Source of the DNA: Planctomycetales bacterium
GTDB lineage: Bacteria; 4484-113; JAFGCY01
DNA: 64,000 nt
Assembly (NCBI GenBank): GCA_022646745.1
Contig: CP060262.1
Coordinates: 1,495,149 to 1,559,148, forward strand
Reading direction: 5' to 3'
A program made the position numbers and the translations under genes. Under the pieces are notes generated by a model. That model saw only the letters and a program-made list of their open reading frames with translations. It made no database searches and was not told where the DNA came from. Positions within the stretch are counted from its first letter, which is position 1; the number at the start of each line of letters is the position of its first letter. Of the stretch, positions 23,205-40,396 are shown in pieces.

Positions 23205-23223
23205 ATCAGTGCTCCTTCGGAGC

Positions 23224-23288
23224 GGTCAGTGGTCGGTAGTCAGAAGTCAGATCAATTCATCTGCTTTAATCTGACCACTGACCACTGA
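23224..23288. repeat. palindromic spacer element (GGTCAGTGGTCGGTAGTCAGA..TCTGACCACTGACCACTGAC)
   Basis: Inverted repeat between array member 11 and the 12th GNAT gene. Confidence 0.6.
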
Positions 23289-23870: not shown

Positions 23871-23936
23871 TTCCGTTCTCCTTGTATCCCTGTATGCCCG
23901 GCGTTACATTCCGCCGGCCGTTGTCATTCCAGTTCG

Positions 23937-24884: not shown

Positions 24885-24902
24885 TTCCCATCTCCTCGGG
24901 GT

Positions 24903-25724
24903 TCAGTCCCCGCTGCCCCTGCGGCAGCTGTATATCAGTTCGCCCCTGCGCTCGGCAAGCGGGCTGCGCTCATAGTCACTGTAGACGGCCTCGATCTCGA
25001 GGCCGCTTCCCTCAAGCAGCAGTTCGGCCTCATTGTGCATCATCCAGCGCATGCGGAACTGCTCCTCGTCGTTGTCAACCACGCGCCCCTTGCCGTCTAG
25101 CCGCTCGAAGCGCATGCTGACATCGTGTACCTGGCTGCGTGCATCCGCGAGGATCCTCGTGTAGCGACGCAGCAGCCCGCCGTCCTCCGTCTCCGTCTCG
25201 AGGTCCTGGCGCCAGGTGCTGCACGCCTCCGCCATCCTGGCAATGAAAGCCAGGTTGGGATCGAACAGGTCAAACACCAGCCGGCCGTCCTCGCGCAGGT
25301 GCCGCCGCACGGCCGCGAGGCAGCTGTGCTGCTCATCACGGCTGATCAGGTGCATGAAAGCGCGGAACGGAATGATCACCAGGTCGTAGCGTGCGTCGAG
25401 TTCAAAGTCCGCCATGCTGCCCTGCACCACGTGCAGGCGCTGTTGCACAGGCTGTTCCTCAGCCGAGAGCTTTGCGCGGAGCTGAGCCAGCATGGAGCTG
25501 CTCAGGTCAAGGCCCGTCACATTGTGGCCATTGCAGGCCAGCGGGATGCTCACGCGTCCCGTGCCGCAGCCCAGCTCAAGGATGTCCATCGCGGGCCGCC
25601 CGGGCAGTGACAGCCAGAACTGCAGGTCCACCGCATCGCGGAAACCGTACAGTTCGTCATACCAGCGTGCCATGCCGCGGTAGCATTCCTCGTTGTCAGA
25701 AAGTATTCCTGCAGTGATGTCCAT
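24903..25724 (-). CDS. class I SAM-dependent methyltransferase
   Basis: Motif I ILELGCGTGRVS. Acidic loop VTGLDLS. ATG 25724 with SD AGGAG at 6 nt (the track extends to 25793). Confidence 0.8.
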   Translation of the reverse strand: MDITAGILSDNEECYRGMARWYDELYGFRDAVDLQFWLSLPGRPAMDILELGCGTGRVSIPLACNGHNVTGLDLSSSMLAQLRAKLSAEEQPVQQRLHVVQGSMADFELDARYDLVIIPFRAFMHLISRDEQHSCLAAVRRHLREDGRLVFDLFDPNLAFIARMAEACSTWRQDLETETEDGGLLRRYTRILADARSQVHDVSMRFERLDGKGRVVDNDEEQFRMRWMMHNEAELLLEGSGLEIEAVYSDYERSPLAERRGELIYSCRRGSGD

Positions 25725-25835
25725 TGCGTACTCCTGTGCTGTCGGGAGGGACCGGCCAGGTTCTTTGCTGGATGCATGCGTGCACGTGTGCATGCGGGCC
25801 GGTCGGTACTTGCCAGTCTGGGGAAGGGGGGGCCG

Positions 25836-26184: not shown

Positions 26185-26433
26185 TCAGCCCGGCAGTTCC
26201 TCGCTGGCCAGGTTGCTCTTGATCTTGCTGAGCATGCGGTTGCGGCATTCCTCCGTGACGGATTCCTGCGCCTCGCAGTTCTTGATCTTGCTGAGCAGCT
26301 TCTCGATCACCTGCTTCTCGCGGGCGCAGTCGCCGCACTTCTCCAGGTGGTCGCGTGTCGCTTCCAGCTCCGCCTCGCTGCTCTCACCGTAGACGAAGTT
26401 GAAAATCACATCCTGAATCTTCTTACAGTCCAT
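26185..26433 (-). CDS. anti-sigma factor, zf-HC2 type (soluble)
   Basis: H-x3-C-x2-C motif HLEKCGDC. Immediately downstream of the ECF sigma gene. Confidence 0.55.
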   Translation of the reverse strand: MDCKKIQDVIFNFVYGESSEAELEATRDHLEKCGDCAREKQVIEKLLSKIKNCEAQESVTEECRNRMLSKIKSNLASEELPG

Positions 26434-26544
26434 CGCAATCGTCCTTCTTCAGGCCGGAGAAATTGCCAATGTGCATCTCCCGCCTCGCTCCAGCCTGACC
26501 ATCCAGCATTTCCCGCATCCCATGACAAGCCCCGTCCATCGCGC

Positions 26545-27174
26545 TCAGTCCTCCTCGACGCCCAGCCAGCGGCGGAGCTTGTTGACTGCGTAGCGCATCC
26601 GCGAAAGCACCGTACTGAGCGGGCATTCGCAGATCTCGGCGATTTCCTCGAAGGTCAGCTCGTGGTAGATCTTGAGGATCACCACGGTCCGTTGCTTTTC
26701 TGGCAACCTGTCTATCAGTACCTTGAGGGTCTCTGAAAAATTCTCACGCTCAAGCACGTTTTCCGGCAGATCCCGGAAATCCTCGATGAAATCCTGGCGC
26801 TCACTGTCGCTGCCCTCGTCGCCCACCGGGGTGTTCAGCGAGAATGTCTGCTTGGCCGCACTCTTCTTCCAGTGGCGCTTGACCTCATTGAGCGCGATCT
26901 TGTAGACCCAGCTGGAGAACTTCTTCTCCGGGTCGAAGTTCTTCGCGCTCTTGAACACCCGCAGGAACACCTCCTGCACGAGGTCCTCGATGTTCTCCCG
27001 CTCGCTGACCTGCTTGCGGATGAAGTTGTAGATCTGCTTGTGGTACCTGTCGAATATCTGGTCGAATGCCGCACCGTCACCGGAGGCCAGGCGCACGACG
27101 AGTTCCTCGTCGCTGCCGGGCTTCGGCACGATCGGCACATCCAGGCTCCGTTTGTTCTGTGCTGTACTTTCCAT
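26545..27174 (-). CDS. RNA polymerase sigma-70 family, ECF subfamily
   Basis: Region 2 (IEDLVQEVFLRVF..FSSWVYKIALNEVK) and region 4 HTH (LTFEEIAEICECPLSTVLSRMRYA). Confidence 0.85.
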   Translation of the reverse strand: MESTAQNKRSLDVPIVPKPGSDEELVVRLASGDGAAFDQIFDRYHKQIYNFIRKQVSERENIEDLVQEVFLRVFKSAKNFDPEKKFSSWVYKIALNEVKRHWKKSAAKQTFSLNTPVGDEGSDSERQDFIEDFRDLPENVLERENFSETLKVLIDRLPEKQRTVVILKIYHELTFEEIAEICECPLSTVLSRMRYAVNKLRRWLGVEED

Positions 27175-27188
27175 GTTCCCGGTCCAGT

Positions 27189-27605
27189 CTACCCCGCTTC
27201 CCCCGTTTCATCCAGCTCCACCAGTTCGGTGAGCACGCCGCAGGCGCTCTTCGGGTGGATGAAGAACACCCGGCCCTCGGCACCCTGGAACGGAGACTCG
27301 CTCAGCAGCTGCATCCCTGCATCGCTGAGCCTGCCATGCGCCTGGTCCACATCCCCGCTTTCAAAGCAGAGGTGGTGCAGCCCCGGTCCGCGCTTCTCGA
27401 GGAAACGCTGCACCGAGCCCGCCGGATCAGTCGCCTCAAGCAGTTCCAGCTTGGTGTTGCCCGTGAGCATTGCAATGCGCACCCCCTCGGATGGCACCTC
27501 GTGGTATTCCACGGCCTCCGCGGGATAACTGAGCATCGCGCACCACAGCGGCACTGCTTCCTCCAGTGATTTCACGACGATCCCGATGTGGTCCAGCTGA
27601 AACAT
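27189..27605 (-). CDS. VOC family protein, methylmalonyl-CoA epimerase-like
   Basis: HIGIVV and HHLCF metal-ligand motifs of the MCE/glyoxalase fold. 14 nt upstream of the sigma gene. Confidence 0.6.
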   Translation of the reverse strand: MFQLDHIGIVVKSLEEAVPLWCAMLSYPAEAVEYHEVPSEGVRIAMLTGNTKLELLEATDPAGSVQRFLEKRGPGLHHLCFESGDVDQAHGRLSDAGMQLLSESPFQGAEGRVFFIHPKSACGVLTELVELDETGEAG

Positions 27606-27776
27606 AGCCTGAATTATATAAGTGCTTTCCGGCCCTGTTAGCTACCGTTCCACAGGAGGCTTTGTTTCAATTGGGAACAGGGCCAGTCTCAATTGCGACA
27701 TCCTGTATTTATCAACATTTTCTGTGGATAAGTGCTCATTTACCCTTAACTTAAGTCAGCCTTTTTGAGAAAACTG

Positions 27777-27805
27777 TTGATAACCCTGTTAATAATGTGT
27801 TAATA
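27777..27805 (+). promoter_or_regulatory. candidate sigma-70 promoter TTGATA-N17-TTAATA upstream of the TPR/beta-barrel gene
   Basis: AT-rich divergent region. Contains the ATCAACATTT 10-mer at 27711..27720, shared with 6769..6778. Confidence 0.25.
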
Positions 27806-27921
27806 TCCGCGTCATACGAGCTCTCACCGTGGCTGAGGAAGGCGGTGCTGCTTGTAATGGAAGAAGGCTTAAACCGGCCAGCGGGTCGGTTCAGAGGAAG
27901 TGCCGCAGGGCGGCTAGAGGC

Positions 27922-30900
27922 ATGATAGGCATACGAGGACGGCATCTGTTGCTGCTGGTTGTGATCATCCTGGTCATACTGGCGACAGCTGCGTTCGCCC
28001 AGGAGGATGCATTCACCCGTGCCGATGCCGCATTCAGCCGCCGTGATTGGGCAGTGGCTCGCCAGGAGTACGAGCGCATCGTCGAGACCTACCCCGGCAC
28101 CGCAACAGCCTGGCTGCGCCTCGCACAGATCCACGAGGAACTTGGCAACTGGAATGACGTGGTTGCCATCTATGAGAAGCTCGTCACGCTTGGCCCCGTC
28201 AACCGCGACACCCGCATGGCCTATGGCGATGCGCTGCGCAATGTCGGACGGCTCGAGGACGCGCTGGCCCAGTACGAACTGGCAGTGCGAGAGGCCCCCG
28301 TCACCGAAAGCGTTGACAAGGCCCTCTCCCGCGCCTGTGATGCCTTTGACCGTGGGGACCTGGAAGCCGCCCAGCAGTCTTACGAGGATGTGACCCGTAA
28401 CTGGCCGGGGCATCCGACCGCCTGGCTTGGGCTGGCCCGCATCCACTCCCGCAATGCGGACTGGCAATCAGCCGTCGCAGCCTACGCCCAGCTTGAGTCG
28501 CTCGGGCCGCTGGGCAAGGAGATCCGCATGGAGTACGGCGATGCCCTGCGCAGCGCCGGACGGCTCGAGGAAGGGATCGCCCAGTACAACATGGCCGTCG
28601 GCACACCGATGTCGCCGGAATTCCAGCAGACCAAGCGCTACCTGCCTGAGGCCGTTTCGGTGCAGAGCGTTGACGGCTCCCACCTTGAGGAACAGGACCG
28701 GCAGCGCCCGCAGCGCATGCTGATCGTGCCCGGTGAGGAGGAGCGCAGCATTGAGGCTGCCAACGCTCGCATTGAGAGCCTGATCGGTTCCGGCAGCCAG
28801 GCCGCGCCGGCAAGCGGACAGCCCGCCGGAAATGGCAATACAAGTACGGGGCAGAAGACCTGGCTGGATTTCGATCCGGCCGCTGCCAGTTTCCGCAGTT
28901 CCCGCATCGAGGACCTGCCGGGCGAGGACGAGGAAAGCATCATGTCCGCGCTGCTGCCGCCCAAGCCGGCCGGCGAGCGCATTGACAAGGGCATGCTGCG
29001 CCCGGGCGAGAAGCCCGCACCGGCTGGGGATGGGGCTGACTTCCATGAGCCCTTCCGATCCGACAGCAGCCTGATGCAGGTCAACCTCGCTGAGAGCAAG
29101 GTGAATGGCAGCACCGCAGGCACGGGCCAGCCAGCGACGAACATCGCTGACAACACCCGGGTGCGCAACACGGCTGAGTTCTTCAAGGGCGCTGAGATCC
29201 ATGCAATGCAGGCTACCGGCGAAGGAGATGACGATGCTTCCCAGCCCGCCGGCGGATCGATGGACTGGCTGCGCACCGCGCGCCAGCACTACGATGCCGA
29301 GGAATGGTCCGATGCCGTGCTGGCATTCCAGAACTACATCGATGAGGTCGGAGATGACAACCTCGACACCGGTGTGAGGCTGGAGTACGCCCTGGCACTG
29401 CTGGAGGATGGCCAGACTGAACTGGCCGAGGACAACATCTCACTGGTGATGCACCAGGAGCCGGAGAACACCGAGGCCAAGATCGCGCTGGCGAAGCTGC
29501 TGTCGCGCACCGGCGAGCTGAACGACTCGATGCTGCTGCTGGACCAGCTGCGCATGGATGAAACCAGCCGCACTGAGGTCCGCCTGGCGCGGATTTACGG
29601 CTATTTCCACAACGACTACATCCAGGAAACACTGATGGACCTGGGTGAGCTGATCGCCACCAATTCCGCCAATGACGACATCCGCGAGATGGTGGCGCGA
29701 GGCGCGCCCTGGACCGAGGTCAAGCCGCTGCTGGAGGCCCGCCCCGGCAACGAACGGATCATCGAGATGGTGGAGACCGTCAAGGCCCGCCTGCTGGCCG
29801 AAATGGACATCGGCGAGGCGGACATTGCCAACATCGCGATGCAGATGTATGAGAGCGGCCAGTATGACACCGCGCGCACGGACTTCGAGCAGAAGGTTGC
29901 CGACGATCCGGAGGACATGCAGAGCTGGCGCGGGCTGGCGGTGCTGACAATGGTTGCCAAGGACTACAGCGCGAGTATCGAGGCCTGGGAGGCCTACCTC
30001 GGCCTGATGCCGGACGATGCGCAGGCCCGCCTGTACTACGCGCAGGCCCTGATGAATTGTGACTGCAACGCGGCGCTGTGTGAACTGTGGGCCCTGATTG
30101 CGCTTGGCGAGCCGGAGAACCTGGCCGGCCACAAGCTGTATGAATTCCAGTCCGGCATGAGCAGCATCCCCGAGGATGCGACGGTCGACCAGGCAACCTA
30201 TGAGGATGCCCTGCTGAACTATGCTGTTGCATTGTCAATCTGCGAGCGCAGCAAGGAATCGCTCTACTGGTTCCGCCAGGCGATGTACTGGCAGCCTGAC
30301 AACCTCTACTGGCAGACATACTACGCCGGTGCGCTGAACACGCTTGAGCGCTATGACGAGGCGATGGGCATCTACTGCGCCGTGCTGCGCGAGGAGCCGA
30401 TGTTCGAGCCCGCTATGCTCGGCCGCGGCTACACCTATGCCTCGATGGGCCAGTACCGTGATGCATTCCGTGAATGGGACAGCATCCCGCTGGACAGCCA
30501 GTACTACCTGCCGGGCCGGATCGCCAAGGCCTACGGCCTGCTGTGGAAGGGCCAGCGCAGCGATGCGATGGCAATGGCCTGCTACGTGATGCGCGACGAC
30601 CCGGAGAACTGCGAGGTCTGGGACCTTGTGATGGCCATCAAGGAAGTGCCTGACGCCACGCTCGATGTGGCCTGGCGCCAGAGCCATGACAGCGAGGACA
30701 ACGACCTGCGGGCGGTGACGACCACGCTGACCGTGCCGCTTGATGCGCGCGGCTCGCTGATGGGAATCGTGCATGAGGACTTCAAGGTTGACAACACCGT
30801 GGCCGGGCAGGAGAGCGATGGTGAAAGCACCGCACTGAGCTTCGTGCTGCCGGTCAACGACCGCCAGCGCTTCCAGGTGCTGGCGCGCTACCTCGACATC

Positions 30901-31548
30901 GACAACGGTGCCGACGCCCCGGTGGACAACTGGGACTGGTCGGCCTCCTACACCGTCGAGATGAATGACAACCGCCAGCTGCGCCTGGCCTATGACAGCC
31001 GGATGTTCTACGAGACCCCGGAACTGGCGCGCAACGGCATCGTGATGGATGAGTACAGCATCGGCGCGACCATGCCGTTCTTCCACGATGAGGAGACGCG
31101 CCTGATCGCGAGCTTCGCCTATGGCGACCTGAGCGACGGCAACAGCCGGATCAACACCGACTGGCGCATCGAGCGCGAACGGAACCACTGGGGCCGCGGC
31201 AAGCTGATCTACGGCCTGCACTTCGTCACGCTGGACTACTGCCGTGACGAAAATAACGGCTACTGGGACCCGAACAACTACCGCTTCGGCGAGATCTACG
31301 CGGACTGGATCGATACCAGCCACAACGACTTCCTCTGGGACTTCGGTGTCGGTTACGGCTGGGACGATGCGGCGGACCGTTCCCCGGCGGATGTGCTGCG
31401 CTACAAGGTCGGGCTGCGGGCCAAGCTGTTCCGTGACCGCCTGACGATGCGAGCCGGATATTCCAACAGCGAACTGGCCACCCTGGTCACCGATGGTCCG
31501 GGTTACCGCTATGAGCTGTGGACCCTCTCCGGGCAGGTCAAATTCTAG
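27922..31548 (+). CDS. TPR-repeat protein with C-terminal outer-membrane beta-barrel (BcsC/PgaA-like polysaccharide export porin architecture)
   Basis: Signal peptide at the ATG 27922 start. Many TPR units in the N-terminal 800 aa. C-terminal 400 aa has alternating amphipathic beta-strand patterns and ends ..YRYELWTLSGQVKF with the terminal Phe typical of OMPs. Start uncertain because SD spacing is poor; the ORF is open from GTG 27829. Confidence 0.6.
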   Translation: MIGIRGRHLLLLVVIILVILATAAFAQEDAFTRADAAFSRRDWAVARQEYERIVETYPGTATAWLRLAQIHEELGNWNDVVAIYEKLVTLGPVNRDTRMAYGDALRNVGRLEDALAQYELAVREAPVTESVDKALSRACDAFDRGDLEAAQQSYEDVTRNWPGHPTAWLGLARIHSRNADWQSAVAAYAQLESLGPLGKEIRMEYGDALRSAGRLEEGIAQYNMAVGTPMSPEFQQTKRYLPEAVSVQSVDGSHLEEQDRQRPQRMLIVPGEEERSIEAANARIESLIGSGSQAAPASGQPAGNGNTSTGQKTWLDFDPAAASFRSSRIEDLPGEDEESIMSALLPPKPAGERIDKGMLRPGEKPAPAGDGADFHEPFRSDSSLMQVNLAESKVNGSTAGTGQPATNIADNTRVRNTAEFFKGAEIHAMQATGEGDDDASQPAGGSMDWLRTARQHYDAEEWSDAVLAFQNYIDEVGDDNLDTGVRLEYALALLEDGQTELAEDNISLVMHQEPENTEAKIALAKLLSRTGELNDSMLLLDQLRMDETSRTEVRLARIYGYFHNDYIQETLMDLGELIATNSANDDIREMVARGAPWTEVKPLLEARPGNERIIEMVETVKARLLAEMDIGEADIANIAMQMYESGQYDTARTDFEQKVADDPEDMQSWRGLAVLTMVAKDYSASIEAWEAYLGLMPDDAQARLYYAQALMNCDCNAALCELWALIALGEPENLAGHKLYEFQSGMSSIPEDATVDQATYEDALLNYAVALSICERSKESLYWFRQAMYWQPDNLYWQTYYAGALNTLERYDEAMGIYCAVLREEPMFEPAMLGRGYTYASMGQYRDAFREWDSIPLDSQYYLPGRIAKAYGLLWKGQRSDAMAMACYVMRDDPENCEVWDLVMAIKEVPDATLDVAWRQSHDSEDNDLRAVTTTLTVPLDARGSLMGIVHEDFKVDNTVAGQESDGESTALSFVLPVNDRQRFQVLARYLDIDNGADAPVDNWDWSASYTVEMNDNRQLRLAYDSRMFYETPELARNGIVMDEYSIGATMPFFHDEETRLIASFAYGDLSDGNSRINTDWRIERERNHWGRGKLIYGLHFVTLDYCRDENNGYWDPNNYRFGEIYADWIDTSHNDFLWDFGVGYGWDDAADRSPADVLRYKVGLRAKLFRDRLTMRAGYSNSELATLVTDGPGYRYELWTLSGQVKF

Positions 31549-31639
31549 GTTTCACCCCTGTTTTCCTGACTGCCGGTTCCATTTAACCTTGATTTAACTG
31601 ATTTCGCGCACTTGCTGACAGTTTGTGCACTGATCCAAG

Positions 31640-31668
31640 TTGACTCACACACCCTATATAACTAGAAT
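31640..31668 (+). promoter_or_regulatory. sigma-70 promoter TTGACT-N17-TAGAAT
   Basis: Near-consensus hexamers upstream of the PKD lipoprotein gene. A CCGGTC-attatt-CGACCGG palindrome lies between the promoter and the start. Confidence 0.4.
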
Positions 31669-31705
31669 TTAGCATCCGGTCATTATTCGACCGGCTGGCT
31701 CAGGG

Positions 31706-32740
31706 GTGATATTGATGACCAGACACTGGCTGAACTCCCGCGCAGGCGGGTTATCTCAGTACATGAGACAGGGCGGAATTGTCCTGCTTGTGTGCGCCTG
31801 CTGCCTGATCTTCGGATGCGGCGGTTCCACCACAACCACTCCGGACCAGAACGGTGATCCGATCATCGTCGCCTGGCTGGAGACCTTCGGCTCGGACAAG
31901 AACCTCGGTGCCACGATCGATGGCTCCGGCAGCTGGTCCACCGAAGGTGCCGTCACTTACGACTACGACATGGACGGTGATGGCACATATGACGTGCTGG
32001 CCGGCGACAGTGTCGAGACCTGGATCTATCCGAAGGCCGGCCAGTACACCGTGATCCTGCGTGTGACAGATCCGAAGGGCAACTCAGCCACCGACACCGC
32101 CAAGGCAACTGCGGTCGATGAGACCGGCGGCAGCGACGGCGGGGATGGCAGCGGCGATGGCGGCGGGGATCCCGTTGATGAGACGCCGGTGGCCAAGCTC
32201 AACATCTACTGGGCTGAGGGTGGCAACGCCTTCCGCACGCTGGATGCCACGAGCAGCTGGGCCAAGGACGGGGGCAACCTGAGCTACGACTACGACATTG
32301 ACGGCGACGGGAACTATGAGATCAAGAATGGACAGAAGTCCCTTGTATATGAGTATCCCAAGCCCGGCGAATACACCACCGTGCTGCGCGTGACCGACAG
32401 CAAGGGCAACTCGGCGACGGCTTCCTTCACGGAGACCATCCAGCCGGATGACCCGAATGCCTGGGATCCCTCCGACCTTGCACCGGTCGTCAAGCTGCAG
32501 GCTTACTGGGCCGAGGGCGGCGATGAGTACCGCACGATCGATGCCCAGAGCAGCTGGGCCCGCACCGGCGAGGACCTCGTCTACGACTACGACATGAACA
32601 ACGACGGGACGTTCGAGATCAAGGGCGGTGAGCCCGTGTTCGTCCATCATTTCCCGGGACCGGGAAGCTACCGCATCTGGCTGAGGGTCACTGACGAAAG
32701 TGGCAACTCAGGCACGACCTCCATTGTTGTCGAGGTATAG
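31706..32740 (+). CDS. PKD-repeat lipoprotein
   Basis: Lipobox LIFGCGG. Three PKD-like repeats (..YDYDMDGDGTYD.., ..YDYDIDGDGNYE.., ..YDYDMNNDGTFE..). Confidence 0.6.
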   Translation: MILMTRHWLNSRAGGLSQYMRQGGIVLLVCACCLIFGCGGSTTTTPDQNGDPIIVAWLETFGSDKNLGATIDGSGSWSTEGAVTYDYDMDGDGTYDVLAGDSVETWIYPKAGQYTVILRVTDPKGNSATDTAKATAVDETGGSDGGDGSGDGGGDPVDETPVAKLNIYWAEGGNAFRTLDATSSWAKDGGNLSYDYDIDGDGNYEIKNGQKSLVYEYPKPGEYTTVLRVTDSKGNSATASFTETIQPDDPNAWDPSDLAPVVKLQAYWAEGGDEYRTIDAQSSWARTGEDLVYDYDMNNDGTFEIKGGEPVFVHHFPGPGSYRIWLRVTDESGNSGTTSIVVEV

Positions 32741-32743
32741 GAC

Positions 32744-34726
32744 ATGTACAAGGTTTGGGAAGAGCGAAGTGGAATGAAGGGGCTGCTGGCTGTGATGCTG
32801 TTCGGCCTGCTGCTGGCCGCGTCATGCGGCGGTGGCGGATCGACGGCTGTTGATGCCGCCAATACCAGCTCCCCCGTCGCCGTGCTGACGGCCAACCCCG
32901 GCAGCAGCGGTGCGGCACCGTTCAGGGTCAGCTTCAACGCTGCCAGCTCGCGCAGCAGCAACGGCACCATTGCCCGCTATGACTGGGACACCAATGGCGA
33001 CGGCAGCTTCGAGGTGAGTGACGGCAGCGCCACGCTGGACTGGACCTACCAGGACGGCGGCAGCTACAAGGCCAGCGTCAAGGTGACCGATACCGGTGGC
33101 CGCAGCGCCACGGCCACCATGAGCATCTCCGTCTCCGGCGGCACAACGGGTGGCAATACCACCGGAGGCAACACCACCGGGGGCAATGCCAACCAGAACG
33201 CGGCCGGCAGCCCGAATCCGCCGACCGCCCGCCTGACAGCCTCGCCGCGCACCGGCCCGGCACCGCTGAAGGTCACGCTGGATGCCAGCGAGAGCTTTGA
33301 CAGCGATGGCAGCATCGTCGGCTATGAGTTCGACCGCGACGGCGACGGCAGCTATGACTGGAAGGGCAACAGCCCGACTGTGCAGTTCACCTACCCCGAC
33401 GTAGGCGACTACACCGTCAAGGTGCGCGTCGAGGACAACGGCGGCAACAAGAGCGTTGCCAGCATGCAGGTCAGTGCACTGAAGGCCAGCGAACCCGGCC
33501 CGGTGACCGGCCCGAACCCCGGTTCCGCCACCACCCCGGTCGCCAGCCTGACGGTCACGCCGGCCACCAGCGGTGAGATCCCGTTCTCGGTGAAGTTCGA
33601 CGCATCCGGCAGCACCGACCCGGACGGCACGATCGAGACATATGAATTCGATCCCGACGGCGACGGAACCTACGACTACAGCGGCCCGAGCGCCAAGTAT
33701 GACTACACCTATGCCACTGCCGGCAACTACGAGGCCCGCGCCCGCGTGATTGACAACGACGGCAACAGCTCGCTGCTGACCGTGATCATGCATGCGCTGG
33801 CCCCGGGCCAGACCGGCGAGGAGACCCAGGTCGCGCCGACCCTGCGCCTGACGGTGCGTCCCGGCACGACCGGCCCGGCCCCCTTCGAGGTCGAGTTCGA
33901 CGCCTCCGCCAGTGATGATGAGGACGGCACGATCACGAAGTTCCAGTTCGACACCGATGGCGACGGCAGCTACGAGGCCAACGGCACGGCCTCGAAGTTC
34001 ACCTACACCTATGACACCCCCGGTGACTACACTGCCCGCGTGCGTGCCACGGACAATGATGGCAACACGGCGGAAGTGAGCGTGATGATCACCGTCGAGC
34101 TGCCCTTTGACCCGAACAACGAGCCGCCGATCGCCCGCCTGGAGCTTGACCCGGCATTCAACGGCAATGCCCCCTTCGCGGTGCGCCTCGACGGTTCCTC
34201 CAGCGAGGACCCGGACGGCAGCATCGTCAAGTATGAGTTCGATGCCAATGGCGACGGCATGGTGGACTACAGCGGCCCGAACAGCAGCTATGACTACACC
34301 TATGCCAGCGCCGGCCAGTACGACGCCTGGATGCGGGTGACAGACAACGGCAACCGCTCCAGCATCGCCACCGTGGCGGTCGTGATCAGTGGCAACACCG
34401 GTGATCCGAATGACCCCAATGACCCGAATGACCCGCCGGATGACGGCAACTACGACCCGATCGCGGTAATGTTCGTCGACCCGGTGTTCGGCAAGGCCCC
34501 GCTGACCGTGGAATTCGACGCCGGCCCGAGCCTGGACATTGACGGCACCATCGTGAAGTACAAGTGGGAGATCGACGGCAAGGGACCCTTCCCGCAGGGA
34601 CCGCTCGGTGACCCGAAGGTCGTCACCGTGACGTTCACCTCGCCTGGCAACTACTGGGCCAAGCTGACCGTGACGGATGACGAGGGCGGCACCGGCAGCC
34701 TGAGCATGCTGGTGATCGTCCAGTAA
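32744..34726 (+). CDS. PKD-repeat lipoprotein (about 7 PKD units)
   Basis: Lipobox LLAASCGGGG (a start at 32774 is also possible). Repeated Dx(D/N)GDGxY and VxVxDNxG PKD motifs. Confidence 0.6.
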   Translation: MYKVWEERSGMKGLLAVMLFGLLLAASCGGGGSTAVDAANTSSPVAVLTANPGSSGAAPFRVSFNAASSRSSNGTIARYDWDTNGDGSFEVSDGSATLDWTYQDGGSYKASVKVTDTGGRSATATMSISVSGGTTGGNTTGGNTTGGNANQNAAGSPNPPTARLTASPRTGPAPLKVTLDASESFDSDGSIVGYEFDRDGDGSYDWKGNSPTVQFTYPDVGDYTVKVRVEDNGGNKSVASMQVSALKASEPGPVTGPNPGSATTPVASLTVTPATSGEIPFSVKFDASGSTDPDGTIETYEFDPDGDGTYDYSGPSAKYDYTYATAGNYEARARVIDNDGNSSLLTVIMHALAPGQTGEETQVAPTLRLTVRPGTTGPAPFEVEFDASASDDEDGTITKFQFDTDGDGSYEANGTASKFTYTYDTPGDYTARVRATDNDGNTAEVSVMITVELPFDPNNEPPIARLELDPAFNGNAPFAVRLDGSSSEDPDGSIVKYEFDANGDGMVDYSGPNSSYDYTYASAGQYDAWMRVTDNGNRSSIATVAVVISGNTGDPNDPNDPNDPPDDGNYDPIAVMFVDPVFGKAPLTVEFDAGPSLDIDGTIVKYKWEIDGKGPFPQGPLGDPKVVTVTFTSPGNYWAKLTVTDDEGGTGSLSMLVIVQ

Positions 34727-34803
34727 CACGGACTGACAACGCAGTGCAGGCCGTCTCGCCACATCACCGTGGCGGGGCGGCCTGTTTCCTTTTCCGGTGC
34801 AGA

Positions 34804-34833
34804 TTGACAATCGCTGTGCTGCACGGCTAAACT
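34804..34833 (+). promoter_or_regulatory. candidate promoter TTGACA-N18-TAAACT preceded by an intrinsic terminator (34752..34800)
   Basis: Perfect -35 hexamer. The upstream hairpin GGCCG..CCAC-atcacc-GTGG..CGGCC followed by a T-rich run terminates the PKD gene. Confidence 0.3.
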
Positions 34834-34902
34834 GGTCGCCGTCCAGCCGGGATATGTGGAGGTCGGCAGGCCGGTGCGCCAGGATGCACCGCTGCCCCTG
34901 TC

Positions 34903-36315
34903 ATGCAGTTCCAGACCCTGATCTTCGCGGTGTTCTTCGTGCTCGTGCTCAGCGCGAACTGGCTGCTGCGCCGCCATGACATGCCGCGCAAGCTGTTGTT
35001 GGTGCTGGCGAGCTACTACTTCTATTTCCACCTGAGCTTCACCTGGCTGATGCCGTCGATCCTCGCGGGCTCCTCGTTGCTGAACTACTTCTGCGGTGAG
35101 GGTATCTTCAAGGCCCGCGAAGCCGGCAACAAGGGCGCACAGCGCGCCTGGTTCAGGCTCGGCATCTGGGGCAACCTGCTGACGCTTGGCGTCTTCAAGT
35201 ACTACGGCTTCTTCCAGGAGAACGTGGAGAACGTGCTGGGCAACTTCGGGATGAGCTCGCACCTGCCGATCCTCGAGATCATGCTGCCTGTGGGCCTGTC
35301 CTTCTACACCTTCCAGGGCTTGAGCTACATCATGGACCTCAACCGCGGTAAGGGCGTGCGTGCCAACACCGTGGTGGACTTCCTGCTGTACATCTCCTTC
35401 TTCCCGCAGCTGCTGTCCGGCCCGATCTGCCGTCCGAAGGAACTGCTGCCGCAGCTGCATGAGGGCCTGCCGCAAAGCATCCCGGAGCCGAGCCGGGCAG
35501 TCTCGCTGATCCTCTCCGGCCTGTTCAAGAACGTGGTGCTCAGCCACTACCTCTACATGCACATCGTCGGGGACGTGTTCCTTGACCCGTCTGACTACTC
35601 GGCAGCGTCGCTGTGGGTCGGGATGTTCGCCTATGCCCTGTATATATATGTGGACTTCAGCGGCTACACCGACCTCGCCGTCGGCCTTTCGCTGCTGATG
35701 GGCGTCAGCATCCCGCACAACTTCAATCATCCCTACCTGGCAAGTGATGTCTCCAACTTCTGGGGCCGCTGGCACATGACCCTGTCGCGCTGGATCAACG
35801 ACTACCTCTTCGTGGCACTCGGCGGGCGCGACATCAACAAGCGCTGGACCGCCCTGTTCTGGGCCTGGGTGCTGTGTGGCCTGTGGCATGGCGCCGCCTG
35901 GAACTACATCCTGTGGGGTGCCTATTTCGCCATCGCACTGCTGATCCACCACTACCTGCGCAGCGGCATCAAGAAGAAATGGAAGGGCGGCGTGGCCGGC
36001 CAGATCGGCACCTTCATCGTGGTCTGCTTCGGCTGGGTGATCTTCGCCTCGCCGGACCTCGAGACTCTGTGGGCCTATCTCACCGGCCTGTGGCGCTTCA
36101 GCGCTCCCGGTGAGGGCTTCGAGGCCTTCGTGCTCGTGGTGCTGGTCCTCGGTGCCTTCATGCACATCTTCGGCGAACGCATTCGCAATGGCTTCATCCG
36201 CCTGCACGACGGAATGCCACCGCTGTTGCGGCCCGTCGCCTGGCTTGCGATCGGGCTTGTAATCCTCGCCCTCAAGCCCAGCGGTATGTCGCCCAACCTC
36301 TACTTCGGATTCTGA
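34903..36315 (+). CDS. MBOAT family O-acyltransferase (AlgI/DltB/PatA-like)
   Basis: Multi-pass membrane protein with the conserved His motifs WGRWHMTLSRWINDYLF and GLWHGAAWNYILWG. Confidence 0.8.
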   Translation: MQFQTLIFAVFFVLVLSANWLLRRHDMPRKLLLVLASYYFYFHLSFTWLMPSILAGSSLLNYFCGEGIFKAREAGNKGAQRAWFRLGIWGNLLTLGVFKYYGFFQENVENVLGNFGMSSHLPILEIMLPVGLSFYTFQGLSYIMDLNRGKGVRANTVVDFLLYISFFPQLLSGPICRPKELLPQLHEGLPQSIPEPSRAVSLILSGLFKNVVLSHYLYMHIVGDVFLDPSDYSAASLWVGMFAYALYIYVDFSGYTDLAVGLSLLMGVSIPHNFNHPYLASDVSNFWGRWHMTLSRWINDYLFVALGGRDINKRWTALFWAWVLCGLWHGAAWNYILWGAYFAIALLIHHYLRSGIKKKWKGGVAGQIGTFIVVCFGWVIFASPDLETLWAYLTGLWRFSAPGEGFEAFVLVVLVLGAFMHIFGERIRNGFIRLHDGMPPLLRPVAWLAIGLVILALKPSGMSPNLYFGF

Positions 36316-36316
36316 T

Positions 36317-36628
36317 ATGCAAGACCAGACACAGACAGGGAACACGCAGGAAAACGAGCAGGGACGGATGAGCCCGGGCTTCCTGATCGGCAGCTCATGG
36401 ATGATCCTGATCCTGCTGACCCTGCTGTTCGGCTATGACGTGAACTACGCGGCCTTCAGCTCCGACAACCCCTATGTGCAGGAGAAGGTGCAGCCCCTGA
36501 CCGAGAAGCTCAGCAAGCTCTGCGTGGACAGCGGTCTGCGCAAGCTGCGCCAGGATGTGGAGGGCAAGGTCTACCCGGTCTACGATGATTCCCCGATCTG
36601 GGTGGAGATCGAGGAGCCGGAAGACTGA
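36317..36628 (+). CDS. small membrane protein, hypothetical
   Basis: Single TM helix. Start is 1 nt after the MBOAT stop. Confidence 0.35.
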   Translation: MQDQTQTGNTQENEQGRMSPGFLIGSSWMILILLTLLFGYDVNYAAFSSDNPYVQEKVQPLTEKLSKLCVDSGLRKLRQDVEGKVYPVYDDSPIWVEIEEPED

Positions 36629-36753
36629 CGCTGTTTTAACGCCATTTGCGCTTTTCCGATATTGAACGCTGACCGGCGGGAAACGTCCTGACCGGAGTAA
36701 TCCCACACCAGGGGGCAGCGGTGCACGGATCCGTCCACCGCTATAATCAGCCC

Positions 36754-37476
36754 ATGTCCATCAACAGAATCAGAATCACGGCCATGGCCCTGCTTGCGGC
36801 GGCCTTCATCATCGCCGGCAACCAGCAGGCGCGTGCGGAAACCAAGACCATCCTGCTGGTCGGCGCGTCCTCGATCGAGGGTACGCTCGGCAAGGAGATC
36901 GAGGACCGCCTCGAGAAGGAATACAAGGACGTCAAGATCGTCCGCTGGGGACAGCACTCCACCGGCCTGGCCAATCCGGAGCTGCTGGACTGGCACAAGA
37001 AGCTCGATGAGCTGCTGAAGGCCAACAAGCCCGACCTGGTCGTGGCCGACCTTGGTGAGAACGACTGCGCGCCCGTGACTGACTCCAACGGCCCGATCGC
37101 CCGCTTCGGCACCTCCGAGTGGGAGAAGGTCTACGACGAGCGCGTGCGCAAGTTCGTGAAGATGGTCAAGGACAGCGGTGCTGATTCCGTGATGCTCGGC
37201 ATCCCGACGATGCGCGACCGCAACTTCAGCAGCCAGGTCGAGCAGCTCAATGGGGTGCTCAAGGGTGCCACAGAGGCAGCCGGCGGATTCTACCTGGATA
37301 CCTGGGAGTTCACCGCTGACAACAAGGGCAACTACGTCCCGAACCTGGAGTACGAGGGCAAGGACCGCATGATCCGTGCCAGCGACGGCGTGCACTTCAG
37401 CAAGCACGGCTCCGAGTACATGGCCTTCAAGATCTGCGAGATCCTGGAAAGCAAGTACGGGCTGCAGCCGAAGTAA
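36754..37476 (+). CDS. SGNH/GDSL hydrolase-family protein (AlgJ/PatB-type partner of MBOAT)
   Basis: Signal peptide. Block I ILLVGASSIEG and C-terminal DGVHFS(KH) of the SGNH fold. TATAAT lies 6 nt upstream of the ATG (a leaderless configuration). Confidence 0.65.
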   Translation: MSINRIRITAMALLAAAFIIAGNQQARAETKTILLVGASSIEGTLGKEIEDRLEKEYKDVKIVRWGQHSTGLANPELLDWHKKLDELLKANKPDLVVADLGENDCAPVTDSNGPIARFGTSEWEKVYDERVRKFVKMVKDSGADSVMLGIPTMRDRNFSSQVEQLNGVLKGATEAAGGFYLDTWEFTADNKGNYVPNLEYEGKDRMIRASDGVHFSKHGSEYMAFKICEILESKYGLQPK

Positions 37477-37511
37477 TCCGCAGCCTGTGGATGTAATTTA
37501 AACGTGATTTT

Positions 37512-37550
37512 AACGGGGATTGCCACGGCGATCCCCGTTTTTTTTATTTT
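37512..37550 (+). terminator. rho-independent terminator
   Basis: AACGGGGAT-tgccacggcg-ATCCCCGTT followed by TTTTTTTATTTT. Confidence 0.65.
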
Positions 37551-37560
37551 CCCGTTACAA

Positions 37561-37600
37561 TAACGAACAGTTAACGGTCGATTAACGATTCGTTAACGGG
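37561..37600 (+). promoter_or_regulatory. phased TTAACG(G) direct repeats
   Basis: TTAACGG at 37571, TTAACG at 37583, TTAACGG at 37593 (spacing 12 and 10 nt, about one helical turn), plus TAACG copies at 37509 and 37561. Confidence 0.3.
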
Positions 37601-37610
37601 AGAATTACTA

Positions 37611-37715
37611 ATGGTTAGAAAGGCGTTGATTGTTCTTGGGGTAATTGGGGTCGTGATCGGGGCAAATGTCCTGCTTTTCGGTCCACTTTACGACATCGTA
37701 AACGTGATCCAGTAA
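37611..37715 (+). CDS. candidate small ORF (34 aa, single TM: MVRKALIVLGVIGVVIGANVLLFGPLYDIVNVIQ)
   Basis: SD GGGAGA 7 nt upstream. Followed by a hairpin terminator. Confidence 0.3.
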   Translation: MVRKALIVLGVIGVVIGANVLLFGPLYDIVNVIQ

Positions 37716-37737
37716 CTGAGTCACGTCCACTTTCAAT

Positions 37738-37776
37738 GGCCGCCTCACTGCGAGGGCGGCCATTTAACTTTTCTGG
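37738..37776 (+). terminator. hairpin ATGGCCGCC-N9-GGCGGCCAT plus a T-rich tail
   Basis: Perfect 9-bp stem. The ORF-track start at 37736 falls inside this hairpin, so that N-terminal extension is probably not coding. Confidence 0.45.
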
Positions 37777-37798
37777 GCCGGAGATATATAATCCATCC

Positions 37799-39478
37799 AT
37801 GCTGCGTTACCTGGTGCGTGCCTGCACGCTGATCCTCCTGATTGCGGCCCTGGTGCTGATCGGCGCCGCCGCTCCCTCCGACACCAACGGCCCGGCCTTC
37901 CCGCGCCTCGCGATGTGGTTCCCGACCCATCCGAAGGCCAGCATGCTGGACCGTGCGCGCTTCGATGTGCTGGTTGGCGACTTCGCGACTGGCATCCCGG
38001 GGCAACGTGCCACGGGTCGCAAGAGCACCACGAGCTTCGCCTCGGAACTGCGCAAGGCCAATGGCAGCACGAAGCTCCTGACCTATTACCGCCCGCTGGT
38101 GATCCGCCCGAGCTCGCTGTACGAGGGCACCCGCAAGCATAACCCGCTGCTGAAGAACTGGCCTGACAGCTGGTTCCTGACCGAGGCCGGCAGCACGCTG
38201 ACCGCCAACATCAGTGCCAACAGCGGCCGCCTGAGCGTGGCTGACTGGCAGCAAAGCGGCGAGAGCCAGGGCAACAAGCCGAAGAAGTGGGACATCTGGA
38301 AGATCGGCCAGGATGTGCAGGTGGACGGCGAGATCATGACGATCACCGCCGTTGACAAGGACTCAATGAGCATCACCGTCGAGCGCGGCATGAACGGCAC
38401 CGCCGCCGTGGCGCATACCTCCGGCACCCGCGTGGCCCCGATGGCGCGCTTCTGGCGCGGCAGCTACATCATGAACATGACCGACTCCAGCGGCAGTGGA
38501 AGCGTGGATGGCGGCTCCGGTGAAAAGTACGCGCAGTACGCCTTCCGCATGAGCCTTGAAGGTGCCAACGAGTGGTTCAGCTACATCGGCGGCGACCAGG
38601 ACGGCTTCCTGTGGGACATGATGCCTGACAACCTGAGCTGGGTAATGTGGGCCGAGACCAACAGCCTCGACCTCAACCGTGACAACGTGTCCGACACCTT
38701 CGCGAGCATCGACAGCGCCTGGACCAAGGCCCTCAATGACCACAAGGCGATGTTCAGCGCGCGCTTCCCCGGCAAGGCGATCGTGCGCAACCAGAGCCGC
38801 TCGCGGGACTACAACGCCTACAACGGCGAGAGCTTCGTCTCCTTCCCGCACGACCAGTGGAACGCCCAGCGCGCCGTCAACACCGACGGCTGGACCCGCT
38901 TCTGGCACAACGTGTTCTTCGGTGACCGGGAGGAAGTGCGCGGCGGGATCACCGAATTCCAGAAGGGCACCAACCTGCCGAACTACACGCAGATCATCAC
39001 TGACGACCTCGAAATGGACCTTGACGCCGCCGGCTTTCCTGAGCTGCGCAACCCCGACACCGCCACGATCTGGAAGCCCAACTACCGCAAGATGCGCTGG
39101 GGCATCTGCTCCGCGCTGCTGTCCGGCAGCTACTACGGCTATGTGATCACCACCGACGGCTACGGCCTGCGCGGCATCGAGTGGTTCGATGAATATGACG
39201 ACGCGGGTGTGGGCCGTGGCTACCTCGGCTTCCCGAAGGGCGAGATCACGAAGATCGGCAAGAGCGGCCAGAACAAGGACTGGGGCGTCTGGGCCCGCGA
39301 ATACGACAAGGGCTATGTGATCGTCAACCCGCTGGACAAGGACATGACGGTGCCGCTGCCGGCCGGTAAGTGGCAACGCATCAAGGGCACGCAGGTGCCG
39401 GAGGTGAACAGCGGCGCGATCGAGGAGGGCACGGTGACCGTGCCGAAGTTTGATGGGTTAATACTGAAGAGGCTGTAA
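37799..39478 (+). CDS. secreted putative glycoside-hydrolase-like (TIM-barrel, GHL-type) protein
   Basis: Signal-anchor MLRYLVRACTLILLIAALVLIGAAAPS. Promoter TTAACT-N17-TATAAT, with the -10 exactly 6 nt upstream of the ATG (leaderless). Family assignment is weak. Confidence 0.45.
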   Translation: MLRYLVRACTLILLIAALVLIGAAAPSDTNGPAFPRLAMWFPTHPKASMLDRARFDVLVGDFATGIPGQRATGRKSTTSFASELRKANGSTKLLTYYRPLVIRPSSLYEGTRKHNPLLKNWPDSWFLTEAGSTLTANISANSGRLSVADWQQSGESQGNKPKKWDIWKIGQDVQVDGEIMTITAVDKDSMSITVERGMNGTAAVAHTSGTRVAPMARFWRGSYIMNMTDSSGSGSVDGGSGEKYAQYAFRMSLEGANEWFSYIGGDQDGFLWDMMPDNLSWVMWAETNSLDLNRDNVSDTFASIDSAWTKALNDHKAMFSARFPGKAIVRNQSRSRDYNAYNGESFVSFPHDQWNAQRAVNTDGWTRFWHNVFFGDREEVRGGITEFQKGTNLPNYTQIITDDLEMDLDAAGFPELRNPDTATIWKPNYRKMRWGICSALLSGSYYGYVITTDGYGLRGIEWFDEYDDAGVGRGYLGFPKGEITKIGKSGQNKDWGVWAREYDKGYVIVNPLDKDMTVPLPAGKWQRIKGTQVPEVNSGAIEEGTVTVPKFDGLILKRL

Positions 39479-39582: not shown

Positions 39583-40305
39583 CTAGTTCGACTTACTAGG
39601 CAGGTACGGAATCAGCCGCAGTGCCAGTTCGCGGATCACCTGGTGCTGCAGCCAGACCTTGCCCGGCCCGGTCAGCGTTGCCAGCGCCAGTCCCTCACCT
39701 GAAAGGAAGATGTTCTTCAGCTTCTTCTGGATTTCGAAGTTGTACTGCACTGTGTCCTCGAAGGCGGCGATGTGCCCGCTGTCAACCTTGATGGTCTGGC
39801 CGGCCTCCAGTTCCACCACGGATAGCTCGCCGTCAATCTCAAGGAACACCGTGCCCGGCCCGCTCATGCGCTGCAGGAAGAAGCCCTCACCGCCGAGGAA
39901 GCCCTTGCCGAGCCCGGTGGTCTCCATCTTGATCGTGCAGCTGTCCTGGCTGCACAGGAAGCTGCCGCGCTGGGCCACGAGGCTGCGCCCCGGCAGGATG
40001 TCGTAGGGCACGATGTGGCCCGGGAAGCTGGAGGCGAAGGCCACGCGCCCGCTCGACCCTTCAGCCTGGAAGTAGTTCAGGAACACGCTTTCGCCGGAGA
40101 TCGCGCGGTTCAGCGCGCCGCCCAGCATCCCCATCAGCCCGCCGCCGCTTTCCGGCATCGAGGTGTCGAGGTCGATGTTCGGGTCCATCCAGATCATCCC
40201 GCCGGTCTCGCTCATCACCCGCTGGCCCGGCTGCAGGTGCAGTTCCACGATCTGGTGGATCGTGCCGCGGATCTCATAGTTCAGTCCAGTTGCGCTGATT
40301 GCCAT
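39583..40305 (-). CDS. TIGR00266/AIM24-family protein
   Basis: About 240 aa from MAISATGLNYEIRG. Glycine-rich beta-rich sequence typical of DUF124/AIM24. Confidence 0.6.
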   Translation of the reverse strand: MAISATGLNYEIRGTIHQIVELHLQPGQRVMSETGGMIWMDPNIDLDTSMPESGGGLMGMLGGALNRAISGESVFLNYFQAEGSSGRVAFASSFPGHIVPYDILPGRSLVAQRGSFLCSQDSCTIKMETTGLGKGFLGGEGFFLQRMSGPGTVFLEIDGELSVVELEAGQTIKVDSGHIAAFEDTVQYNFEIQKKLKNIFLSGEGLALATLTGPGKVWLQHQVIRELALRLIPYLPSKSN

Positions 40306-40396
40306 TGCCAGCCATCCTTGTCGGCGTCTGCCGTGATGGCCTGATTCTAGCAGCCCCGCAGGCCCGGCCGGGATACCTTGCCTATAATCAGGTGAC

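Follow-up and report, generated by a model that had tools for sequence, protein, structure and literature searches.

The locus described here lies in a 64-kb stretch of the contig CP060262.1 (64,000 nucleotides, about 62% GC; hereafter the window) and encodes a candidate system for exporting and modifying a polysaccharide. We defined its gene set by a listing of open reading frames (ORFs), filtering by GC content at third codon positions (GC3), and Pfam scans. All locus genes are co-directional on the + strand and encode, in order, a tetratricopeptide repeat (TPR) porin, two PKD-domain proteins, an MBOAT acyltransferase, a 103-residue membrane protein, an SGNH protein, a 34-residue micro-ORF product, and a GHL15-like hydrolase. 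A preliminary description of this DNA had listed the same genes apart from the micro-ORF, and each was found where it had been placed. Contig JAGRNR010000012.1 of UBP7 HKST-UBA01 matches the locus at 99% identity. The "HKST" label seems to match a 9-year study of saline activated sludge that names UBP7 (PMC8495973).

Relatives were collected by a metagenome scan with a 7-sequence barrel alignment and by a genome scan with a GHL15-like alignment. Within UBP7, three lineages share the gene order porin–(PKD, PKD)–MBOAT–103 aa–DUF459–34 aa–GHL15-like, where DUF459 denotes the SGNH protein. These lineages are the window with its 99%-identical relative L015, L010 (about 75% identity), and L006/L016/L017 (about 72%; L006 is the relative AC1.30). 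The porin–MBOAT–DUF459 association is also present in a sister clade (L009, L024, L026, L027, and L029), in which the flanking genes differ and identities fall to 33–43% for the porin, 49–51% for the MBOAT protein, 42–50% for the DUF459 protein, and about 49% for the GHL15-like protein (L009).

Predicted fold of the TPR-porin

The porin gene (27922–31548, +) encodes 1208 residues from a probable ATG, the longest ORF beginning at GTG 27829. Read from the ATG, the protein starts with a hydrophobic, signal-like segment and continues with a first TPR block, a low-complexity linker of ~200 residues, a second TPR block, and a C-terminal barrel. In the numbering of the long ORF, Pfam TPR families match residues ~60–260 and ~480–935, and the predicted 16-stranded β-barrel domain follows at residues 943–1239 (30655–31548, +). 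The C-terminal region returned zero matches in Pfam, NCBIfam, or PDB sequence searches. Its AlphaFold2 (AF2) model, built from a 17-sequence alignment (pLDDT 90, pTM 0.81), consists of three helices, corresponding to the last TPR, followed by 16 β-strands. The preliminary description had staked its outer-membrane assignment on a β-barrel prediction for this region, and the confident 16-strand barrel upholds that assignment; the domain is ~297 residues long rather than the 400 that had been proposed.

A Foldseek comparison of the barrel model with the PDB placed PgaA (4y25), BcsC (6tzk, 9b8a, and 9b8h), and PelB (9h80_M) in the first five positions, with TM-scores of 0.67 to 0.78. The best match is PgaA 4y25 (TMt 0.78), PelB 9h80_M gives TMq 0.67, and the ranking then drops to CdiB and OmpG at ≤0.54. 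PgaA, BcsC, and PelB are the three solved exopolysaccharide TPR-porins, and they are exactly the closest matches of the modeled barrel, whose 16 strands follow the TPRs and can be superposed on these solved structures. The terminal phenylalanine, which the preliminary description had pointed out as a signature, is invariant across the barrel family alignment. The barrel domain has a net charge of −21, and this acidity recalls the electronegative pores through which PgaA and PelB pass cationic polymers, a weak hint as to the substrate.

Searched exhaustively with HMMER, 1.84 billion cluster representatives yielded 33 barrel homologs, 19 of them with E values below 1e-10, and the family is thus rare. 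A k-mer-indexed homolog search returned nothing with the single barrel sequence and two distant proteins with a profile, which makes it uninformative for the family; equally uninformative is the distant homolog P0037, which sits in a two-component/STAS context. Two of 17 barrel family members match the Pfam family PgaA_barrel (best E 1.2e-5) and one matches BCSC_C (E 0.005), and none of the Pfam barrel families matches the window porin itself. An NCBIfam match of the porin to PrsT lies far under the cut-off and is confined to the TPR part.

The acyltransferase pair and the candidate hydrolase

The MBOAT gene (34903–36315, +; 470 aa; Pfam MBOAT, 72.5 bits) encodes a PatA-like acyltransferase with the catalytic histidine in WGRWHMTLS and the C-terminal sequence NLYFGF, motifs that are kept in eight orthologs; the sister-clade orthologs end in YIYFGF. 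A C-terminal FxYxxF has been described as an "acyl shuttle" motif, in which the tyrosine of PatA is auto-acetylated and the acetyl group is handed to PatB (bioRxiv 10.1101/2024.09.17.613324). The proteins studied here therefore combine an invariant histidine with an FxYxxF-type terminus that keeps the tyrosine and the terminal phenylalanine, the first phenylalanine being replaced by asparagine in UBP7 or by tyrosine in the sister clade. Against the NCBIfam model DltB, the protein scores 164 bits, under the cut-off. A DltBCD-like D-alanylation system was considered and rejected, since DltA and DltC are both missing and the tyrosine motif is carried by the MBOAT protein itself.

The SGNH gene (36721–37476, +; 251 aa, probable start ATG 36754) encodes a protein with its own signal peptide and a DUF459 domain (Pfam, 173 bits). 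Its nearest solved relatives are the PatB proteins of Neisseria and Campylobacter (7trr and 7tjb; E 1.4e-17), at an identity of only ~28%, and it scores 76 bits against the cut-off of 580 for the PatB equivalog (NCBIfam NF045704). Alignment to PatB 7trr pairs the Block I serine (GASS with GDSL), the Block III asparagine (GENDC with GPNDP), and the Block V Asp-x-x-His (DGVH with DGIH), so that the serine, aspartate, and histidine are all intact. The pairing of an MBOAT with an SGNH protein, as first noticed, is thus present, and by its motifs the pair has the catalytic features of MBOAT-SGNH polymer acetyltransferases; of the kinds of pair that had been named, the SGNH protein is specifically of the PatB/DUF459 type and not AlgJ/WssI-like. 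Canonical peptidoglycan O-acetylation clusters consist of patA-patB-ape1, and our Pfam scans found no Ape1-type esterase in the locus. PatB accepts chitooligosaccharides (β-1,4-linked N-acetylglucosamine, GlcNAc) in vitro, which makes a GlcNAc polymer a plausible acceptor.

Between these two genes lies the gene for the 103-aa protein (36317–36628, +), which has a single transmembrane segment and no Pfam match and is conserved in L006, L010, and L017. By tblastn it matches the N-terminal part of a 341-aa fused DUF459 ORF in L021 (38% over 76 aa, E 1e-7), and on visual inspection the 339–341-aa DUF459 proteins of L009 and L024 begin in a similar way. On the strength of this match to a fused sister-clade protein, we identify the 103-aa protein as the putative split-off N-terminal membrane or docking region of a PatB-like protein, the gene having apparently undergone fission in UBP7. 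By analogy, it would correspond to the PatB region that touches PatA in the published model. The "small TM protein" of the preliminary description therefore stands, with its identity refined to a probable PatB fission product.

The last gene of the locus (37799–39478, +; 559 aa from the probable start, longest ORF 37736–39478 with 580 aa) encodes a protein predicted to be secreted or membrane-anchored. Its Pfam GHL15 match is marginal (30.3 bits against a cut-off of 27, covering profile positions 105–270 only), and most of its 17 homologs have no precomputed Pfam match. The AF2 model (pLDDT 77) shows a (β/α)8 barrel with an inserted β domain and a C-terminal β-sandwich, bearing out the earlier suggestion of a secreted TIM-barrel-like protein. 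Its best Foldseek matches are endo-fucanases of glycoside hydrolase family 168 (GH168) and 9f9v, an uncharacterized Planctomycetota protein (TMt ~0.6), followed by GH66, GH13, and GH36; PelA (GH166) is outside the 50 best fold matches, and a sequence search of the PDB gave no match. The model supports a glycoside-hydrolase-like fold for this product, to which we assign no specificity.

A micro-ORF between the SGNH and hydrolase genes (37611–37715, +) encodes a 34-aa product with a single transmembrane segment, MVRKALIVLGVIGVVIGANVLLFGPLYDIVNVIQ. It is found at the same position in L006, L016, L017, L010, and L015 with 79–94% amino-acid identity, was picked up by gene calling in L001 and L010, and has a ratio of nonsynonymous to synonymous substitution rates (dN/dS) of 0.10. 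Its consensus, LLFGP[LIV]Y[DNEQ]xVNVxQ, places an invariant tyrosine directly after the transmembrane segment, a topology that recalls the acyl-shuttle microprotein DltX; FxYxxF itself is not matched. Upstream of the GHL15-like homolog of L007 (7226–9975), a frameshifted MBOAT gene occurs together with genes for a 401-aa protein, a 36-aa microprotein, and a 131-aa protein. The 36-aa microprotein ends in GPFIYSVF, an exact, DltX-like FxYxxF, and the 401-aa and 131-aa proteins have no Pfam or NCBIfam match. L007 thus presents a second kind of MBOAT acylation system tied to the same hydrolase family.

Gene linkage and the proposed export system

The GHL15-like gene ends the module in the window and L015, in L006/L016/L017, in L010, and in L009, and on the short contig L021 it follows the fused DUF459 gene. 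In L009 and L024, a CarboxypepD_reg domain protein with a carbohydrate esterase family 4 (CE4) deacetylase domain is encoded between the porin and MBOAT genes. A secreted protein of 775–788 aa is encoded directly upstream of the porin in L024 (324–2651), L009 (2–1945), L026 (5026–7392), and L027 (5486–7684), with 63–67% identity among these sister-clade loci. The most extensive arrangement is that of contig Ga0315282_10000189 (L012 plus L027), where a GHL15-like gene comes first; a divergent operon on the opposite strand follows, encoding a 390-aa protein, a 437-aa protein, a family 2 glycosyltransferase (GT2), a HEAT-repeat protein, a response regulator, and a CE4 protein; and the genes for the 775-aa protein, porin, MBOAT, and DUF459 proteins come last. 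The GT2 has DGD and QRRRW motifs and two N-terminal and several C-terminal transmembrane segments, features of a processive membrane synthase, and its best NCBIfam match is PgaC_IcaA (136.7 bits, under the cut-off). The CE4 protein is NodB/PdaB-like. Neither Pfam nor NCBIfam matches the 775-aa, 437-aa, or 390-aa proteins, and the window has no homolog of the GT2, the CE4 protein, or the 775-aa protein.

For the window, we scanned ~40 ORFs across the 64 kb against Pfam, including a sample of each of two tandem arrays of small genes. Among these ORFs we found no glycosyltransferase, no Wzx/Wzy, and no cyclic di-GMP (c-di-GMP) component (PilZ, GGDEF, or EAL), in agreement with the preliminary description insofar as it had reported neither a glycosyltransferase or synthase nor Wzx/Wzy. 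Its further statement that no ABC polysaccharide exporter is present needs amendment: an ABC-2 permease (15941–16888) and an ABC ATPase (23937–24884) are encoded upstream of the locus, both on the − strand, although they are not obviously polysaccharide-related. It had offered either a synthase encoded elsewhere or a stand-alone module as explanations. We favor the former, because the sister-clade module adjoins a CE4 deacetylase and, on Ga0315282_10000189, a PgaC/IcaA-like GT2. A split system is in itself unsurprising, since loss or rearrangement of loci is common in the operons of the known synthase-dependent systems (PMC7112194). Relative to L015, dN/dS is 0.03–0.10 for all eight locus genes, and the synthase-less locus is therefore kept by selection.

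We interpret the locus as the periplasmic and outer-membrane half of a synthase-dependent exopolysaccharide system, most like the Pga system for poly-N-acetylglucosamine (PNAG), whose synthase would be unlinked in UBP7; we put the probability of this reading at roughly 0.65. Its PNAG-like character, with the UBP7 synthase elsewhere in the genome, is suggested by the position of the sister-clade module beside a CE4 gene and a PgaC/IcaA-like GT2 with QRRRW. The core of the preliminary description, polysaccharide export and modification with no synthase in cis, draws support from the barrel, the acetyltransferase pair, the hydrolase fold, and the scanned window ORFs. Measured against the published four-part definition of such systems (PMC7112194), the locus has a TPR domain coupled to an outer-membrane pore and has periplasmic modifying enzymes of predicted activity. 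An inner-membrane glycosyltransferase synthase is present only on the sister-clade contig Ga0315282_10000189, and none was found among the scanned window ORFs or in the ±10 kb flanks of L006. The scanned ORFs likewise include no c-di-GMP-binding domain or co-polymerase, in place of which the operon of the sister clade encodes a response regulator and a HEAT protein.

Based on the motifs and the published PatA mechanism, we propose the following scheme. An inner-membrane synthase encoded outside the window would make and translocate the polymer, which probably contains GlcNAc. The MBOAT protein would load acetyl from cytoplasmic acetyl-CoA onto the tyrosine of NLYFGF at the periplasmic face, from where it would pass to the catalytic serine of the DUF459/PatB-type SGNH protein and on to the nascent polymer as an O-acetyl group. 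In UBP7, the 103-aa membrane piece likely docks on the MBOAT protein, and the SGNH domain is soluble and carries a signal peptide of its own. The GHL15-like enzyme may trim or clear periplasmic polymer, in the manner of BcsZ, the C-terminal domain of PgaB, PelA, and AlgL. The TPR domain could serve as a scaffold for these steps, with the acidic 16-strand barrel as the exit for the polymer. A deacetylase is probably also encoded elsewhere in UBP7.

Five synthase-dependent systems have been described, namely those for cellulose, acetylated cellulose, PNAG, alginate, and Pel (PMC7112194). The locus resembles Pga in its TPR-porin with an acidic 16-strand barrel, for which the PgaA barrel is the closest structure, in the PgaC/IcaA-like GT2 (QRRRW) and CE4 genes beside the sister-clade module, and in a predicted periplasmic TIM-barrel hydrolase whose role would be analogous to that of the GH153 domain of PgaB. 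It differs from Pga in that pgaC, pgaD, and pgaB are absent from the window, the GHL15-like hydrolase is encoded as a protein of its own, and there is an MBOAT/SGNH pair for O-acetylation, which is missing from Pga; in the sister-clade operon, moreover, PgaD is replaced by a HEAT-repeat protein and a response regulator. With the alginate (AlgI/J/F/X and AlgK-E) and acetylated cellulose (WssF-I and BcsC) systems it shares periplasmic O-acetylation by an MBOAT and an SGNH-like protein before export through a TPR-associated porin. Those two systems use SGNH-like proteins of the AlgJ/AlgX/WssI type, whereas the UBP7 locus has the DUF459/PatB type, and it contains no equivalents of AlgF/WssF, Alg44/PilZ, or Alg8/BcsA. 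PelB, too, joins TPRs to a 16-strand barrel in a long porin of ~1200 aa and has a TIM-barrel GHL-type hydrolase partner; the UBP7 locus, however, has no PelC-G and encodes acetylation, not deacetylation.

Several observations weigh against a PNAG-like export system. At the sequence level, membership in the PgaA, BcsC, or PelB families was not found by NCBIfam, Pfam, or PDB profile searches: the porin scores 38 bits against the cut-off of 366 for PgaA (PGA_TPR_OMP) and 17 against 858 for BcsC, in the TPR part only, and PDB sequence and profile searches with the barrel yield TPR matches alone and no porin. All documented activity of the DUF459/PatB family concerns the O-acetylation of peptidoglycan. 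The short contigs L028, L030, and L031 carry three barrel homologs of greater divergence with different genes downstream, and GHL15-like homologs stand alone in L008, L013/L019, and L018. Neither the scanned window ORFs nor the ±10 kb around the locus in L006 yielded a synthase, a c-di-GMP receptor, or a deacetylase, and the GT2 adjacency is confined to a single contig lineage (L011/L012/L027).

Some of these points lead to the chief rival, in which the MBOAT, 103-aa, and DUF459 proteins carry out ordinary PatA/PatB peptidoglycan O-acetylation, the GHL15-like protein is a peptidoglycan glycosidase, and the porin is a chance neighbor. The pair does share with PatA/PatB the MBOAT histidine, the C-terminal tyrosine motif, and an SGNH partner that is of the DUF459 type and has the Ser-His-Asp triad; among solved structures, the closest to that partner are PatB proteins, its family is known from peptidoglycan alone, and no exopolysaccharide synthase lies in cis among the scanned ORFs. 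The cell-wall protein Cwp19 of C. difficile, which we take to be a GHL10 enzyme acting on peptidoglycan, could offer a precedent for the hydrolase. A GHL-type hydrolase domain in Cwp19 is described in a paper that mentions GHL15 (PMC5765458). This rival is weakened, however, by the failure of the PatB equivalog model at ~28% identity and by the lack of an ape1-type gene beside the pair. Unlike in PatA/PatB systems, the pair is tied to an exopolysaccharide-type porin and, in relatives, to a hydrolase, a deacetylase, and a synthase, and two genes account for the PatB-like protein, one for its 103-aa membrane piece and one for its SGNH domain, which bears a signal peptide. Linkage to a porin of the PgaA/BcsC/PelB class is kept in two clades even though other synteny is lost, and the sister-clade module lies near a CE4 deacetylase and a PgaC-like GT2. 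The preliminary description had named an acetylation pair devoted to peptidoglycan and unrelated to the TPR protein as a reason to abandon its reading; the first half of that holds at the level of protein family, and the linkage across two clades counters the second. We consider peptidoglycan acetylation unlikely as the role of this locus.

We judge equally unlikely a stand-alone module that modifies and exports a glycan from a non-canonical route, such as an undecaprenyl-linked or ABC-dependent polymer, with no need of a dedicated GT2. The absence of a synthase from the scanned window ORFs and the ±10 kb around the locus in L006, the purifying selection on all genes, and the ABC-2 transporter genes ~2–12 kb upstream would all fit such a module. 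In the sister clade, however, a GT2 adjoins the orthologous module, and the window's ABC-2 genes lie to either side of a GNAT array on the − strand, outside the conserved module. To our knowledge, moreover, all characterized porins of the PgaA/BcsC/PelB class work with inner-membrane synthases.

A catabolic locus, in which the porin would import an environmental polysaccharide for degradation by the GHL15-like enzyme, seems very improbable: the best fold matches of that enzyme are catabolic GH168 endo-fucanases, GH66, and GH13, and S15 peptidases and other secreted hydrolases are frequent in the neighborhoods, but catabolism has no use for an MBOAT/SGNH acetyltransferase pair, the module lacks a sugar transporter, kinase, or utilization-type regulator, and we know TPR-porins of this class only as exporters. 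Least probable of all is a Slam-like translocator that brings the two PKD lipoproteins to the surface, for which a sub-threshold Pfam TPR_Slam match (27.7 bits against 35.2) and the two lipoprotein genes directly downstream, placed like Slam substrates, are outweighed by the 16 strands (the Slam DUF560 barrel has 14), the lack of a DUF560 match or of any Slam structure among the 50 best PDB matches, and the absence of the PKD genes from L006, L016, L017, and the sister clade, where the porin and acetylation genes remain linked.

Within the exopolysaccharide reading, the locus family may represent a sixth, undescribed type of synthase-dependent system, a proposal whose chances we regard as evenly balanced. 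It would unite a PgaC-like GT2, a CE4 deacetylase, a PgaA-class porin, a GHL15-like hydrolase, and a PatA/PatB-type pair, would give the DUF459/PatB family its first role outside peptidoglycan, and would occur in UBP7 with a split PatB and an uncoupled synthase. What is new here is that a PgaA-class porin, acetylation of the DUF459/PatB type, and a GHL15-like hydrolase occur together, that PatB has apparently undergone fission, and that all this is set in an uncultured phylum. If the proposal is correct, a further variant from an uncultured activated-sludge phylum widens the set of five systems, and PatA/PatB-type acetyltransferases, drug-target candidates as peptidoglycan enzymes, have been recruited to secreted polymers; if the pair instead acetylates peptidoglycan, the finding is an ordinary one. 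The natural split of PatB offers a handle on the hand-over of acetyl from the MBOAT protein to its partner, and the polymer may matter in wastewater floc and biofilm formation.

Accessory and neighboring genes

The two PKD genes directly follow the porin gene. PKD protein 1 (31706–32740, +; 344 aa) has three PKD domains (Pfam PKD_4/PKD) and a dN/dS of 0.058 against L015, and PKD protein 2 (32744–34726, +; 660 aa) has six (Pfam PKD_4, 212 bits over six stretches) and is 73% identical to its ortholog in L010. By eye, both have lipobox-like N-termini (IFGC and AASC). L010 and L015 have these genes; L006/L016/L017, whose loci are syntenic in other respects, and the sister clade lack them, and we therefore regard them as accessory, lineage-specific inserts. 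Thus, the two PKD-repeat proteins of the preliminary description are present as putative lipoproteins and fall outside the core module; they are optional additions and possibly bind matrix or polymer. PKD-domain proteins are common in the genome, so the PKD genes of the locus are not distinctive. Genes for S15 X-Pro dipeptidyl-peptidases recur nearby (window 9184–11883 and 14528–15841; L011 8178–9902; L026 2590–4293), and a window S15 protein carries a PKD domain.

Upstream of the porin gene, three genes on the − strand were assigned by Pfam to a glyoxalase/VOC protein (27189–27605), an extracytoplasmic function (ECF) sigma factor (26545–27174), and an anti-sigma-like zf-HC2 protein of 82 aa (26185–26433). 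The first is the "MCE-like" gene of the preliminary description, its product being methylmalonyl-CoA-epimerase-like, and the intergenic region shared with the porin gene (27606–27921) is indeed AT-rich, at 47.8% GC compared with 62.2% for the window. Control of the locus by envelope stress through this sigma factor, as had been suggested, is unsupported: the ZAS-type zf-HC2 protein is soluble and has no transmembrane segment, and synteny of the divergent sigma operon with the locus is kept only in the close relatives L006 and L017. We therefore treat the sigma operon as a neighbor whose regulatory tie to the locus is unproven.

Sigma-70-like promoter matches occur in each larger gap of the locus (27777–27806, 31640–31668, 34804–34833, and 37764–37792), and strong terminator-like signals of the hairpin-plus-T kind follow the gene for PKD protein 2 (34746–34785) and the SGNH gene (37512–37539). 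The earlier statement that the genes have their own promoters and terminators is compatible with these hits, which are no more than pattern matches to a consensus and whose counts are six promoters against 3.1 ± 1.9 expected and 13 terminators against 8.3 ± 3.1 expected.

Farther upstream, about 12 paralogous genes for proteins of 181–201 aa stand in tandem on the − strand (17470–23870), and the two that were sampled match GNAT (Acetyltransf_3). This array lies in a − strand region (15941–25793) in which it is bracketed by the ABC-2 permease, the ABC ATPase, and an S-adenosylmethionine (SAM) methyltransferase (24903–25793), whose best NCBIfam match is to a methyltransferase of daptide-type ribosomally synthesized and post-translationally modified peptides (110 bits, under the cut-off). 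L006 and L017 keep the ABC ATPase and methyltransferase genes in synteny, and the region could be a peptide-modification or resistance cluster.

Downstream of the locus (39583–42289), the window encodes an AIM24/TIGR00266 protein (−) and a 630-aa cytoplasmic protein without a family match (+); the two genes are syntenic in all UBP7 relatives, at 86–99% and 55–95% identity, with no evident tie to the locus. In L006, a gene for a 125-aa 23S_rRNA_IVP/bAvd-like protein (12043–12420), absent from the window, lies between the GHL15-like and AIM24 genes; bAvd-like proteins are accessory proteins of diversity-generating retroelements. A second tandem array on the − strand (51714–58933) holds ~15 small genes for proteins of 115–209 aa, of which one matches DinB_2 and the others sampled have no Pfam match. 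At the opposite end of the window, three paralogous MscS-type mechanosensitive channels are encoded within 13 kb (1876–3258, 11932–13218, and 13218–14447), two of them by adjacent genes.

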